From Escherichia coli (GTDB lineage: Bacteria; Pseudomonadota; Gammaproteobacteria; Enterobacterales; Enterobacteriaceae): a stretch of DNA of 64,000 bases. Numbering within the stretch: the stretch's first letter is position 1; every line of letters begins with the position of its first letter. This document shows positions 4,674-9,207 of the stretch, piece after piece. The notes under the pieces are model-generated. The model was not told the DNA's origin, made no database searches, and worked only from the letters and a program-made list of their open reading frames with translations. The stretch is from the NCBI RefSeq assembly GCF_041886205.1, contig NZ_CP169029.1. One strand, given 5' to 3'. A program made the position numbers and the translations under genes.

Positions 4674-4766
4674 TTTCTGACGGGCAGAAAGCCGTCGCCC
4701 GTACTCATCAAACATACCAAAACCTGGCGCTGACGCCGGGTTTACTGGCATGAAGGGAAAATCATT

Positions 4767-6017
4767 ATGGACATAATGAGAAGTGTTGTGGGGATGGTGG
4801 TGTTACTGGCAATAGCATTTCTGTTGTCAGTGAATAAAAAGAGCATCAGTTTGCGTACGGTTGGAGCCGCACTGCTGCTGCAAATCGCTATTGGTGGCAT
4901 CATGCTCTACTTCCCACCGGGAAAATGGGCAGTAGAACAGGCGGCATTAGGCGTTCATAAAGTGATGTCTTACAGTGATGCCGGTAGCGCCTTCATTTTT
5001 GGTTCGCTGGTTGGGCCGAAAATGGATGTCCTGTTTGACGGTGCGGGTTTTATCTTCGTCTTTCGCGTACTTCCGGCGATTATTTTCGTTACTGCGCTCA
5101 TCAGTCTGCTGTACTACATTGGCGTGATGGGGCTGCTGATTCGCATCCTTGGCAGCATTTTCCAGAAAGCTCTTAACATCAGCAAAATCGAATCTTTTGT
5201 CGCAGTCACAACTATTTTCCTCGGGCAAAATGAGATCCCGGCGATCGTTAAACCGTTTATCGATCGCATGAATCGCAACGAGTTGTTTACCGCAATTTGT
5301 AGCGGGATGGCGTCCATTGCTGGTTCGATGATGATTGGTTATGCCGGAATGGGCGTACCAATTGACTACCTGTTAGCGGCATCGCTGATGGCGATCCCAG
5401 GTGGTATTTTGTTTGCACGTATTCTTAGCCCGGCCACCGAGCCTTCGCAGGTCACATTTGAAAATCTGTCGTTCAGCGAAACGCCGCCAAAAAGCTTTAT
5501 CGAAGCGGCGGCGAGCGGTGCGATGACCGGGCTGAAAATCGCCGCTGGTGTAGCGACGGTGGTAATGGCGTTTGTCGCAATTATTGCGCTGATCAACGGC
5601 ATTATCGGCGGAATTGGTGGCTGGTTTGGTTTCGCCAATGCCTCTCTGGAAAGTATTTTTGGCTATGTGCTGGCACCGCTGGCGTGGATCATGGGTGTGG
5701 ACTGGAGTGATGCCAATCTTGCGGGTAGCCTGATTGGGCAGAAACTGGCGATTAACGAATTCGTCGCTTACCTGAGTTTCTCCCCATACCTGCAAACGGG
5801 CGGCACGCTGGAAGTGAAAACCATTGCGATTATCTCCTTTGCGCTTTGTGGTTTTGCTAACTTTGGTTCTATCGGTGTTGTCGTTGGCGCATTTTCGGCT
5901 ATTTCGCCAAAACGTGCTCCAGAAATCGCCCAGCTTGGTTTACGGGCGCTGGCAGCAGCAACGCTTTCCAACCTGATGAGTGCGACTATTGCCGGGTTCT
6001 TTATTGGTCTGGCGTAA
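4767..6017 (+). CDS. psuT: NupC-family nucleoside transporter (YeiM/PsuT)
   Basis: 416-aa polytopic membrane ORF; close paralog of the nupX ORF at 7957-9207. Confidence 0.9.
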   Translation: MDIMRSVVGMVVLLAIAFLLSVNKKSISLRTVGAALLLQIAIGGIMLYFPPGKWAVEQAALGVHKVMSYSDAGSAFIFGSLVGPKMDVLFDGAGFIFVFRVLPAIIFVTALISLLYYIGVMGLLIRILGSIFQKALNISKIESFVAVTTIFLGQNEIPAIVKPFIDRMNRNELFTAICSGMASIAGSMMIGYAGMGVPIDYLLAASLMAIPGGILFARILSPATEPSQVTFENLSFSETPPKSFIEAAASGAMTGLKIAAGVATVVMAFVAIIALINGIIGGIGGWFGFANASLESIFGYVLAPLAWIMGVDWSDANLAGSLIGQKLAINEFVAYLSFSPYLQTGGTLEVKTIAIISFALCGFANFGSIGVVVGAFSAISPKRAPEIAQLGLRALAAATLSNLMSATIAGFFIGLA

Positions 6018-6087: not shown

Positions 6088-6747
6088 TTACTGCATCATC
6101 CCGGAGAATTTATTCTCCGGGTCCATCTCCAGCGCCAGTCCTGACAACTGCTTTCTGTTTTTAATGAGATACCCTTTCTTGCTTTTAGTTAATAAACCGT
6201 CGTGAATGAATTGCGCGAGAACATATAAAAGATGTCGATAAGAAACGCCTAAATACTCTGCCGCTTGCGTATGCTTTTCGTGATAAAGATCACCTTCCTG
6301 CGAGAGTAATATAAAAGCTGCCAGGCGATTAACTAACGGAAATGATTGATTCTGAGTTAAAGAAACAATATTACGATAATTTTTATGACTTAAGGTGACG
6401 CAGAGTTTTCGTAAAAATAGCGTGTCGTTTAATAACAGCGGGCGGTAATGTTTCATAGAGAGCGCAAGGCACCAACACTCTTCAATAGCCTGCACCGCAC
6501 GCGGTTCATGGTCTTTGTCGATTAACTCAATCTCACCAATAAAACAGGGGGCGGCAAAGAAATCGATCAGCGACACGCGACCATTAGCAAGCGTGGCGTA
6601 AAGCCTGGCGCGGCCTCGCGTCAGATAAAACAGCCAGGACGGCTGTTGCCCTTCCTGCACAATGTAGTCACGCGCTAAAAAATGAAACAGCCGCGTATCG
6701 GCTGAAACATCCGTTAAAAAGCAATCCTTAAACGCGGATTCACTCAT
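6088..6747 (-). CDS. yeiL: CRP/FNR-family transcriptional regulator YeiL
   Basis: ORF has a cNMP-binding-like N-domain and C-terminal HTH. Start placed at the internal Met ([10 protein letters not shown]…) to give 219 aa; the ORF track extends to 6786. Confidence 0.8.
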
Positions 6748-6800
6748 CAATTGCTGCTTAAGATCATTATTGTGGATTTCTTTCACGATGTTTATCCGCT

Positions 6801-6814
6801 ATGAGATTTCTCAT
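6801..6814. promoter_or_regulatory. 14-bp palindrome ATGAG-N4-CTCAT upstream of yeiL; candidate CRP/FNR-family (FNR or YeiL) site
   Basis: atgagatttctcat read directly; TGA-N6-TCA core geometry is typical of CRP/FNR-family sites. Confidence 0.4.
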
Positions 6815-6915
6815 ATTTAGCATACGTACGCGGTTGGTAAGATTCAATCATCGGCCCGGTCGAATTTTCTTTGCTGTAGAAAAAATAACGCAACTGGAAA
6901 CAGAGGAAATAAACA

Positions 6916-7857
6916 ATGGAAAAGAGAAAAATTATTCTGGATTGTGATCCGGGTCATGATGATGCTATTGCAATGATGATGGCAGCGAAACATCCGGCAA
7001 TAGATTTATTAGGCATCACTATTGTAGCGGGTAATCAGACGCTTGATAAAACATTAATTAATGGCCTGAATGTTTGCCAGAAACTGGAGATTAATGTTCC
7101 GGTTTATGCGGGGATGCCGCAACCCATTATGCGTAAACAAATCGTTGCCGATAATATTCACGGTGAAACCGGACTGGATGGCCCGGTATTCGAGCCGCTG
7201 ACCTGCCAGGCAGAAAGTACCCACGCGGTGAAATACATCATTGATACCCTGATGGCAAGCGATGGCGATATCACTCTGGTGCCGGTTGGTCCGCTTTCAA
7301 ATATCGCGGTGGCAATGCGTATGCAACCCGCGATCCTGCCCAAAATCCGTGAAATTGTGCTAATGGGCGGCGCTTACGGTACAGGCAACTTCACGCCATC
7401 TGCCGAGTTCAACATCTTTGCTGATCCGGAAGCAGCCCGCGTGGTGTTCACCTCCGGCGTTCCATTAGTGATGATGGGCCTCGATCTCACCAACCAGACC
7501 GTTTGCACCCCGGACGTGATTGCACGGATGGAAAGGGCAGGCGGCCCTGCCGGAGAGCTGTTCAGCGACATCATGAACTTCACTCTCAAAACGCAGTTCG
7601 AAAACTACGGCCTGGCTGGCGGCCCGGTGCACGACGCCACCTGCATCGGTTATCTGATTAACCCTGATGGCATTAAAACCCAGGAGATGTACGTCGAAGT
7701 GGACGTCAACAGTGGCCCTTGCTATGGGCGTACCGTCTGCGACGAGCTGGGCGTTCTTGGCAAGCCCGCTAATACCAAAGTCGGCATCACTATTGATACC
7801 GACTGGTTCTGGGGCTTAGTCGAAGAGTGCGTGCGCGGCTACATCAAAACCCATTAA
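6916..7857 (+). CDS. rihB: Pyrimidine-specific ribonucleoside hydrolase RihB
   Basis: 313-aa ORF with the N-terminal DCDPGHDDA aspartate-cluster motif of IU-nucleoside hydrolases. Confidence 0.9.
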
Positions 7858-7956
7858 GTGTTGATAACAAGCCGGGTCAGTATCGCAAGATCCAAGCCCG
7901 GCTATTTCTGATGGGCAGAAAGCCGTCGCCCAATATGACATGAAGAGATAATAACT

Positions 7957-9207
7957 ATGGATGTCATGAGAAGTGTTCTGGGAATGGTGGTATTGCTGAC
8001 GATTGCGTTTTTGCTGTCAGTAAACAAGAAGAAGATCAGCCTGCGTACCGTTGGCGCGGCGTTAGTGTTACAGGTCGTGATTGGCGGGATTATGCTTTGG
8101 TTACCGCCAGGGCGTTGGGTCGCTGAAAAAGTCGCTTTTGGCGTGCATAAAGTGATGGCGTACAGCGACGCGGGTAGCGCATTTATCTTCGGTTCGCTGG
8201 TCGGGCCGAAAATGGACACGCTGTTTGATGGTGCAGGATTTATCTTTGGTTTCAGGGTATTACCGGCAATTATCTTCGTCACTGCACTGGTGAGTATTCT
8301 CTACTACATCGGTGTGATGGGGATTTTAATTCGCATTCTCGGCGGTATATTCCAGAAAGCATTAAATATCAGCAAGATTGAGTCATTCGTCGCGGTCACC
8401 ACCATTTTCCTCGGGCAAAACGAAATTCCGGCGATCGTCAAACCCTTTATCGATCGTCTGAATCGCAATGAATTATTTACAGCGATTTGTAGTGGCATGG
8501 CCTCGATTGCTGGTTCGACAATGATTGGTTACGCCGCCCTGGGCGTACCTGTGGAATATTTGCTGGCGGCATCGTTAATGGCGATCCCAGGCGGGATCTT
8601 GTTTGCCCGCCTGTTAAGCCCGGCTACGGAATCTTCGCAGGTTTCCTTTAATAACCTCTCTTTCACCGAAACACCGCCAAAAAGCATTATTGAAGCCGCT
8701 GCGACAGGGGCAATGACCGGGCTGAAAATCGCCGCCGGTGTAGCGACAGTTGTTATGGCATTTGTCGCCATCATTGCGTTAATTAATGGTATTATCGGCG
8801 GCGTTGGCGGCTGGTTTGGTTTTGCACATGCCTCGCTGGAGTCCATTTTAGGTTACCTGTTGGCCCCATTGGCGTGGGTGATGGGGGGTGACTGGAGTGA
8901 TGCAAATCTTGCCGGGAGTTTGATTGGGCAGAAGCTGGCGATCAATGAATTTGTCGCTTATCTCAATTTCTCGCCATATCTGCAAACGGGTGGCACTCTG
9001 GATGCTAAAACCGTGGCGATTATTTCTTTCGCGTTGTGCGGTTTCGCTAACTTTGGTTCTATCGGGGTGGTGGTGGGGGCGTTTTCTGCGGTTGCGCCAC
9101 ACCGTGCGCCGGAAATCGCCCAACTTGGTTTACGCGCGCTGGCGGCGGCGACACTTTCTAACCTGATGAGTGCTACTATTGCAGGATTCTTTATTGGTTT
9201 AGCGTAG
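7957..9207 (+). CDS. nupX: NupC-family nucleoside transporter NupX
   Basis: 416-aa ORF, about 85-90% identical to PsuT by eye across the whole length. Confidence 0.9.
   Translation: MDVMRSVLGMVVLLTIAFLLSVNKKKISLRTVGAALVLQVVIGGIMLWLPPGRWVAEKVAFGVHKVMAYSDAGSAFIFGSLVGPKMDTLFDGAGFIFGFRVLPAIIFVTALVSILYYIGVMGILIRILGGIFQKALNISKIESFVAVTTIFLGQNEIPAIVKPFIDRLNRNELFTAICSGMASIAGSTMIGYAALGVPVEYLLAASLMAIPGGILFARLLSPATESSQVSFNNLSFTETPPKSIIEAAATGAMTGLKIAAGVATVVMAFVAIIALINGIIGGVGGWFGFAHASLESILGYLLAPLAWVMGGDWSDANLAGSLIGQKLAINEFVAYLNFSPYLQTGGTLDAKTVAIISFALCGFANFGSIGVVVGAFSAVAPHRAPEIAQLGLRALAAATLSNLMSATIAGFFIGLA

Follow-up and report, generated by a model that had tools for sequence, protein, structure and literature searches.

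A conserved palindrome between yeiL and rihB of Escherichia coli as a probable operator of the CRP/FNR-family regulator YeiL

The yeiL/rihB intergenic region and its palindrome

We analysed a stretch of 64,000 nucleotides (nt) from an Escherichia coli genome (contig NZ_CP169029.1 of assembly GCF_041886205.1; hereafter, the window) in which yeiL, encoding a CRP/FNR-family regulator, is divided from the divergent gene rihB by an intergenic region that holds a 16-bp palindrome, TATGAGATTTCTCATA, at positions 6800–6815. We propose that this palindrome, here called the YeiL box, is probably an operator at which YeiL would activate rihB, along with nupX, and repress its own gene. The intergenic region, with yeiL on the minus and rihB on the plus strand, measures 168 bp by the K-12 annotation, and the yeiL/rihB region was matched in 5401 of 5426 complete E. 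coli genomes. The genes and the box are placed in the window as follows.

6088–6786, minus strand: yeiL, CRP/FNR-family regulator gene whose product is the proposed box binder (NF007707, 416 bits).
6784–6786, minus strand: conserved yeiL start codon GTG (232-residue product); in the K-12 record, the gene begins at the ATG 6745–6747, 39 nt further downstream.
6800–6815, no strand: YeiL box, 16-bp palindrome, centre 6807.5; TATGAGAAATCTCATA when read on the yeiL strand.
6916–9207, plus strand: rihB-nupX (rihB 6916–7857; nupX 7957–9207), proposed target operon, from its divergent pairing with yeiL.

The palindrome is best split as 7+2+7, TATGAGA-TT-TCTCATA. An inverted-repeat search returned arms of 7 nt each (6800–6806 and 6809–6815), 100% complementary and separated by a 2-nt gap. 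A first-pass annotation of this DNA had described a 5+4+5 palindrome upstream of yeiL; the palindrome is real, and its arms are longer than stated there. The TGA-N6-TCA geometry of CRP/FNR-family sites, to which that annotation drew attention, is present at 6802–6813. The palindrome has the form of a generic operator dyad of this family, with half-site cores about 10 bp apart in the TGA-N6-TCA register, and G4 and C13 of the box lie 4.5 bp from its centre, like G7 and C16 of a CRP site (read off the sequence).

Geometry alone is weak evidence. The window contains 35 occurrences of TGA-N6-TCA (15.2 expected) and seven perfect 7-N2-7 palindromes, compared to 3.8 ± 1.9 in shuffles. The exact 16-mer and its core, GAGANNTCTC, each occur once in the window. 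What raises the palindrome above chance is its conservation, not its geometry. No further copies of the box were detected upstream of psuK, psuT, nupX or yeiI, elsewhere in the window, or in the flanks fetched for 18 species and three Enterococcus loci. Two other perfect 7-N2-7 palindromes lie close to these genes, one directly before the psuT start codon (4763–4778) and one just within the 3′ end of yeiL (6103–6118).

Conservation within Enterobacterales

We collected yeiL loci from 18 GTDB species (Escherichia, Citrobacter, Buttiauxella, Phytobacter, Superficieibacter, Klebsiella spallanzanii, Cedecea, Hafnia, Ewingella and others) and aligned positions −200 to +30 of each with the window, giving 19 sequences. 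Thirteen columns, ATGAGAAATCTCA, were without change in all 19 sequences, from Escherichia to Hafnia and Ewingella. No longer run without change occurred in the intergenic region, and these columns held even where the flanks could not be aligned; exactly one copy of the box was present in each of the 18 species loci. Among 65 E. coli-like loci from metagenomes, representing 15 intergenic haplotypes, the sole variant of the box was a change of T to C at position 15 (2 loci). We consider it almost certain that the palindrome is a functional cis-regulatory DNA element. The window haplotype (TTACCAACCGCG) differs from the commoner one (TTAACAACAGCG) at two positions, which lie between the two promoters described below.

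The rihB-nupX pair was divergent from yeiL in 17 of the 18 species, and the remaining species had rihB alone. Downstream of yeiL, psuT/psuG were found only in some genera; what is held across genera as a module is yeiL with the divergent pair rihB-nupX. Of the two NupC-family transporter genes on either side of yeiL and rihB, psuT (4767–6017) and nupX (7957–9207), which are 88% identical paralogues, only nupX accompanies yeiL-rihB across genera.

The same alignment bears on the start of yeiL, for which the first-pass annotation had allowed alternative codons about 15–55 bp from the palindrome. The measured distances are close to this: 13 nt from the box to the GTG (6786) and 52 nt to the ATG annotated in K-12 (6747). 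The choice between the two could be settled in favour of the upstream GTG, and the K-12 ATG is not favoured. GTG or ATG stood at the upstream start in 19 of 19 aligned sequences, and the peptide encoded from there, MKEIxN..LKQQL, was kept in the 18 species and in Enterococcus. The K-12 ATG was not ATG in several other sequences, two from Escherichia among them. In tblastn, the 232-residue YeiL aligned from its first residue in 18 of 18 loci; the NCBIfam profile NF007707 likewise matches YeiL from residue 1, and the Prokaryotic Genome Annotation Pipeline (PGAP) gives yeiL its long form of 699 nt. The K-12 RefSeq yeiL product (219 residues) therefore looks 13 codons too short. As the upstream GTG is the conserved start, the box ends 13 nt before the real start codon of yeiL.

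The box beyond Enterobacterales

An exhaustive search of representatives placed the YeiL family at about 1100 clusters. Homologues in Enterococcus share 57–59% identity with YeiL, and each is encoded divergently from an IU_nuc_hydro (RihB-like) gene. Hydrolase genes were called by Pfam IU_nuc_hydro where annotated and elsewhere recognised by translation. In two of the three Enterococcus loci (L021 and L025), a PfkB kinase and a Bmp/ABC nucleoside-transport cluster come after the hydrolase gene, in place of nupX. At the corresponding place between the Enterococcus genes stands TATGAGAATTCTCA(T/C)A or TATGAGAAATCTCATA. Scores against NF007707 were 416.5 bits for E. coli YeiL, 334.3 for Enterococcus P0109, 232.4 for P0131 and 182.0 for P0155, all four above the curated cut-off of 180 bits. 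The occurrence of the yeiL and hydrolase module, together with its box and arrangement of promoters, in Enterococcus and related loci (L021, L023, L025, L101 and L102) suggests an old horizontal transfer between Firmicutes and Enterobacterales.

The box was also found upstream of metagenomic YeiL relatives down to 34–38% identity. Eight of these loci carried the following boxes.

L026: TATGAGATATCTCACA
L027: TATGAGAAATCTCACA
L028: TAGGAGATTTCTCCGA
L029: TAGGAGATTTCTCCTA
L030: TAGGAGATATCTCCTA
L031: TAGGAGATTTCTCATA
L033: TACGAGATTTCTCGTA
L114: TATGACATATGTCATA

Ten more metagenome loci had T-type boxes (T:A at positions 3/14); in two others, the sequence ended too soon upstream for a box to be seen. 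In all loci with a sufficiently long upstream flank but one, the divergent gene encoded a RihB-like protein (M-x-K-x-K-I-I-L-D-C-D-x-G-H-D-D); the exception was L027, with a gene for a different protein. A logo over 33 loci had nine invariant positions (A2, G4, A5, G6, A7, T10, C11, T12 and C13), and the family consensus of the box is TA-N-GAGA-WW-TCTC-N-TA. The conserved determinant is GAGA-N2-TCTC with its flanks, not TGA-N6-TCA, the T of TGA being replaced by G or C in relatives.

Promoter geometry

Both strands of the intergenic region contain a predicted promoter, with the following elements in the window.

6835–6843, plus strand: predicted extended −10 of rihB, TGgTAAGAT (hexamer 6838–6843), with TA...T invariant in 19 of 19 sequences.
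6850, plus strand: predicted rihB transcription start A6850 (or C6849), placed from the −10; box centre at −42.5 (or −41.5).
6819–6824, minus strand: predicted −10 of yeiL, TATGCT, 3 nt upstream of the box and kept as TAnnnT.
6842–6847, minus strand: predicted −35 of yeiL, TTGAAT, with a 17-bp spacer to TATGCT.
6812, minus strand: predicted yeiL transcription start at a G (box position 4), 7 nt downstream of the −10; box centre at about +5.5.

The positions of TAnnnT hexamers relative to the box centre were measured in 26 loci. On the hydrolase strand, all 26 had such a hexamer with its first T at one of two distances from the box centre, 29.5 bp (7 loci) or 30.5 bp (19 loci), whereas other offsets on this strand had a TAnnnT in 0–3 of 26 loci, for a background of about 2% per offset. 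The TAGAGT on the hydrolase strand of L114, at 30.5, is consistent with this spacing rule. Because the hydrolase −10 hexamer is set at −12 to −7, the box centre falls at −41.5/−42.5. No good −35 was found on the rihB strand of the window, where TTTAGC (6816–6821) matches at 3 of 6 positions; the sequence next to the box, at the −35 position of the hydrolase promoters of the window (ATTTAG/TTTAGC) and of Enterococcus locus L021 (ACTTAT), matches TTGACA at 3 of 6 at most (two loci, read off the sequence). With the predicted start, the promoter thus has the make-up of a class II activator-dependent promoter: a site near −41.5, a weak or absent −35 and a fixed spacing to the −10. The remark in the first-pass annotation that the region is also the upstream region of rihB proved to be the more informative half of its hint, as a conserved promoter on the rihB strand has the box where a class II activator would bind.

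In K-12, rihB has been described as physiologically silent, with a 25-fold increase in medium conditioned with autoinducer 2 (PMC2898832). Such silence is as expected of an activator-dependent promoter. The rihB −10 hexamer is TAAGAT in the window, TATGAT or TATGCT in other Enterobacterales genera and TATAAT in the Enterococcus-like loci. The E. coli hexamer is further from consensus than the TATGAT/TATGCT of most other genera, which may contribute to the silence of rihB.

On the yeiL strand, 21 of 26 loci have a TAnnnT 1–3 nt upstream of the box (with a gap of 3 nt in 17), and the box therefore overlaps the predicted yeiL start, covering about −3 to +13. TTGAAT or TTGCAT occurs at the same 17-bp spacing in Enterobacterales, Enterococcus and metagenomic relatives (loci read by eye). 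Two nucleotides are shared between the predicted yeiL −35 and rihB −10, both in E. coli and in Enterococcus. Set back to back in this way, the predicted divergent promoters could not be occupied simultaneously.

A small upstream open reading frame starting from the ATG in the box (ATG AGA AAT CTC ATA ...) was considered and rejected: by eye it has no Shine–Dalgarno sequence, its length and frame shift with indels (Hafnia), and a leaderless start misfits the −10 spacing.

YeiL as the probable binder of the box

YeiL and its homologues belong to the Pfam families cNMP_binding and HTH_Crp_2, and for YeiL an Fe–S cluster has been proposed. Their gene adjoins the box in every locus examined, so that a candidate regulator of the right family is linked to the site, and yeiL is the only regulator gene that accompanies the box across phyla. 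In 19 aligned members, the recognition helix (V/T)-S-Y-R-H-L was nearly invariant down to 30% identity. A HMMER alignment to the Thermus CRP-family structure 4ev0 (helix 'SRETVSR') set YeiL residues Y183-R184-H185-L186-L187-Y188 opposite R-E-T-V-S-R. We take the aligned YeiL helix positions to correspond to R180/E181/R185 of CRP and E209/S212/R213 of FNR, and residues 187/188 presumably match the base-contacting positions G184/R185 of CRP and S212/R213 of FNR. The canonical base-contacting residues are all replaced in YeiL, which fits a different half-site.

When boxes were sorted by the residues at helix positions 187/188, the base pair at box positions 3/14 changed with them.

LY or LF: T:A at 3/14 (27 of 27 loci).
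QQ or QE: G:C at 3/14 (3 of 3 loci).
MQ: G/A hybrid at 3/14 (1 locus).
ET: C:G at 3/14 (1 locus).

Locus L114 has an LR variant (helix T-S-Y-R-H-L-L-R), and positions 6/11 of its box are C:G instead of G:C. In this small sample of loci outside the T type, the direction of the co-variation is what a cognate pair of protein and operator predicts. Taken together, we consider YeiL very probably the protein that would bind the box.

The proposed switch

In the arrangement we favour, a YeiL dimer in its active form, responding to a signal, would bind the box via its CRP-type helix-turn-helix. On the rihB strand, YeiL bound about 41.5–42.5 bp upstream of the start would bring RNA polymerase to rihB and so turn on the gene, probably with nupX as well. 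On the yeiL strand, the same dimer would lie over about −3 to +13 of the near-consensus TTGAAT-17-TATGCT promoter and block yeiL (negative autoregulation). The K-12 RefSeq record names YeiL a 'transcriptional activator'. The proposed activation of rihB fits both this name, 'transcriptional activator YeiL', and the silence and conditional increase of rihB expression reported in PMC2898832. Judged from promoter layout, activation of rihB from a class II position is rather likely, and for repression of yeiL by occupancy of the box we see the chances as evenly balanced. More tentatively, and with slightly less than even confidence, we suggest a cross-phylum 'YeiL switch': a single dimer may flip overlapping divergent promoters from the regulator to a nucleoside hydrolase/transporter operon, with a helix code in which residues 187/188 specify the base at 3/14 and another variant that at 6/11.

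Several observations weigh against this interpretation. Expression of yeiL is reportedly subject to positive autoregulation, which is at odds with the position of the box over the predicted yeiL start. Only about six loci that are not of the T type lie behind the helix–base correlation; the metagenome scan yielded mostly E. coli, hence the small number of such boxes. Symmetric changes at 3/14 and 6/11 are equally expected of an RNA stem. Many of the compared loci are phylogenetically related, so that the counts overstate independence. Locus L032 (helix SYRHLEK), whose divergent cluster has two IU_nuc_hydro genes, contains no recognisable GAGA-N2-TCTC box; its specificity may have changed, or its operator may be laid out differently. 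The supplements of PMC4782308, PMC10301672 and PMC6131387 give no experimental start sites for the locus, and in a published sigma-70 table from chromatin immunoprecipitation sequencing (ChIP-seq) in glucose minimal medium, no coordinate fell in the region among the matches listed. As a separate observation, the intergenic region of L032 (3426–3500) has repeated TAGGATA in place of the box.

Alternative explanations

The first alternative keeps YeiL as the binder and changes the logic, with both divergent promoters repressed or yeiL activated from another start. The same conservation and co-occurrence evidence applies to it, and RNA polymerase could likewise be occluded by a box over the −35 region. 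The reported positive autoregulation, moreover, fits neither predicted promoter, and a simple scan gave a weak yeiL-strand promoter, TAAACA-17-AATAAT, downstream of the box. However, the rigid spacing of 29.5/30.5 bp (26 of 26 loci) and the absent −35 (two loci) are needed for contact between protein and polymerase, not for occlusion. Use of the TAAACA/AATAAT promoter, which lies within conserved coding sequence, would set the box at about −48.5 and depend on the K-12 ATG, a codon lacking in several sequences; this promoter was dropped as a general mechanism. On balance, we consider a YeiL operator of this other logic unlikely.

A second alternative is that the palindrome works at the RNA level, as a hairpin just ahead of the ribosome-binding site and at or close to the 5′ end of the yeiL mRNA, with an effect on stability or translation. 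The full palindrome folds at −4.4 kcal/mol (z = −4.2), the box lies 10–39 nt upstream of the yeiL start codon (save for about 90 nt in L033), and pairing is kept through the changes at 3/14 and 6/11. The details of conservation nevertheless speak for DNA. Across Enterobacterales the primary sequence is invariant, the 'loop' included, rather than co-varying; C at position 15 in 10 of 33 loci stands opposite the invariant A2, and the hybrid box of L031 disrupts the pair 3/14. A transcript from the predicted start would begin within the left arm, leaving a 3-bp stem of −2.1 kcal/mol (z = −0.7). With a hairpin, there is no reason for the −10 of the other strand to keep its distance or for the recognition helix to correlate with the box, and we regard this alternative as very unlikely.

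The first-pass annotation had proposed an operator for FNR or YeiL. The YeiL part of this proposal is where the evidence points; the FNR part did not hold. Expression of yeiL is reportedly FNR-regulated, as the annotation also stated, and the palindrome shares the TGA-N6-TCA core of the FNR consensus. Functional FNR sites usually keep the TTGA core and agree with the consensus at no fewer than 7 of 10 positions. ATGAG-ATTT-CTCAT matches TTGAT-N4-ATCAA at only 6 of 10, as well or better than which 1521 sites of the window do, and both discriminating T positions are wrong in each half-site. The box is also kept beside yeiL homologues in Enterococcus and other Firmicutes-like contexts. Tables S5–S8 of PMC3688515, covering FNR by ChIP-seq and by immunoprecipitation on microarrays (ChIP-chip), predicted sites and expression, have no entry for yeiL, rihB or yeiK and no coordinate of the form 22532xx/22533xx (U00096.2); occupancy by FNR in vivo was thus not seen there, for one growth condition. 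A better FNR-like sequence lies 27 bp away.

6834–6847, no strand: FNR-like sequence TTGGTAAGATTCAA, matching 8 of the 10 FNR consensus positions; 42 sites of the window are as good or better.

Lying outside the box, this sequence falls on the yeiL −35 and rihB −10, which overlap each other. It has neither an FNR ChIP peak nor a predicted site in PMC3688515, and is still a better FNR candidate than the palindrome. That the palindrome is itself the site of the reported FNR control of yeiL is, in our view, highly improbable.

For CRP, a matrix was built from 40 high-affinity Footprint-seq sites (PMC12871828, Table 1). Catabolite control of rihB or yeiL from a CRP site at the palindrome can practically be dismissed: although TATGA-N6-TCATA matches TGTGA-N6-TCACA at 8 of 10 positions (4 of 5 per half-site) and strong CRP sites lie nearby inside yeiL and inside rihB, the box scores 2.2 bits (training minimum 9.8, median 17.1; rank 188 in the window), has the G at CRP position 5 replaced in both half-sites, conserves an inner GAGA/TCTC that is irrelevant to CRP, and is absent from the table of new high-affinity Footprint-seq sites with a dissociation constant (Kd) below 10 nM (PMC12871828).

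The nearby CRP-type sites were recorded in their own right. The one inside yeiL, TTCGTGATAAAGATCACCTT at 6277–6296, scores 19.5 bits and is a published Footprint-seq site (K-12 2255813, Kd 4.5 nM; PMC12871828). The one inside rihB, ATTGTGATCCGGGTCATGAT at 6941–6960, scores 17.65 bits and overlaps the codons of the conserved RihB motif DCDPGHDD. Further away, the region upstream of psuK (start 2806) contains a 15-nt direct repeat, GAGCACATGTTTAAA at 2707–2721 and GAACACATGTTTAAA at 2724–2738 (14 of 15 identical), and a CRP-like site, TTTGTGAGCCTGCTCAAATC at 2632–2651 (13.7 bits). These are candidate operators of the pseudouridine operon and have no relation to the YeiL box.

Significance

Among the few CRP/FNR-family regulators of E. 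coli, YeiL is, to our knowledge, after 25 years still without a defined DNA motif, a ligand or a target beyond itself. The product of rihB is a nucleoside hydrolase that is well characterised both enzymatically and structurally, and its gene is reportedly silent under laboratory conditions. If the proposed switch is true, the orphan regulator YeiL would have, for the first time, a defined operator and a physiological target, and the silence of rihB would be explained. The 16-bp operator, the predicted promoter layout and the predicted rihB-nupX target make both problems directly testable, and would provide a reporter for screening the signal of YeiL. Conservation from Enterobacterales to Enterococcus, combined with the co-variation of helix and bases, would make this a compact natural system for the study of specificity change in CRP-type helices.

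Comparison with known systems

No description of a YeiL motif or of the box was found in the literature searched, RegulonDB, EcoCyc and RegPrecise lying outside that search. The motif, its target and its conservation across phyla thus appear undescribed so far. The proposed kind of element is well known: an operator of the family type, at a class II position and also autoregulating, which represents no new kind of mechanism.

The closest likeness is to class II CRP/FNR promoters such as galP1, narG and dmsA, in which the site lies near −41.5. There, like here, a dyad site replaces the −35 at a fixed distance from the −10. The half-site here is TATGAGA, not the TGTGA of CRP or the TTGAT of FNR, and the inner GAGA/TCTC is invariant. 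Most loci here have the site at −42.5 rather than −41.5, with the hexamer at −12 to −7, and activation is a prediction.

In the negative autoregulation of fnr, an FNR site is said to lie over the fnr start, so that both regulators would have their own operator across their own start. The difference is that two overlapping divergent promoters would share one site here and respond to it in opposite ways; in addition, the autoregulation reported for yeiL is positive.

Departure from the E--SR (FNR) or RE---R (CRP) helix pattern is found in FLP and other members of the family with altered site specificity, which use a related palindrome with the same half-site spacing and other bases. YeiL differs from these in having Y-R-H-L-L-Y at the equivalent helix positions. 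FLP of Lactobacillus casei is cited in PMC3590769.

The RegulonDB/EcoCyc entry for YeiL lists one binding site and one target (PMC9308461). It concerns the same protein and the same intergenic region as our analysis; its sole interaction is the autoregulation of yeiL, and rihB, the target proposed here, is not among its recorded targets.

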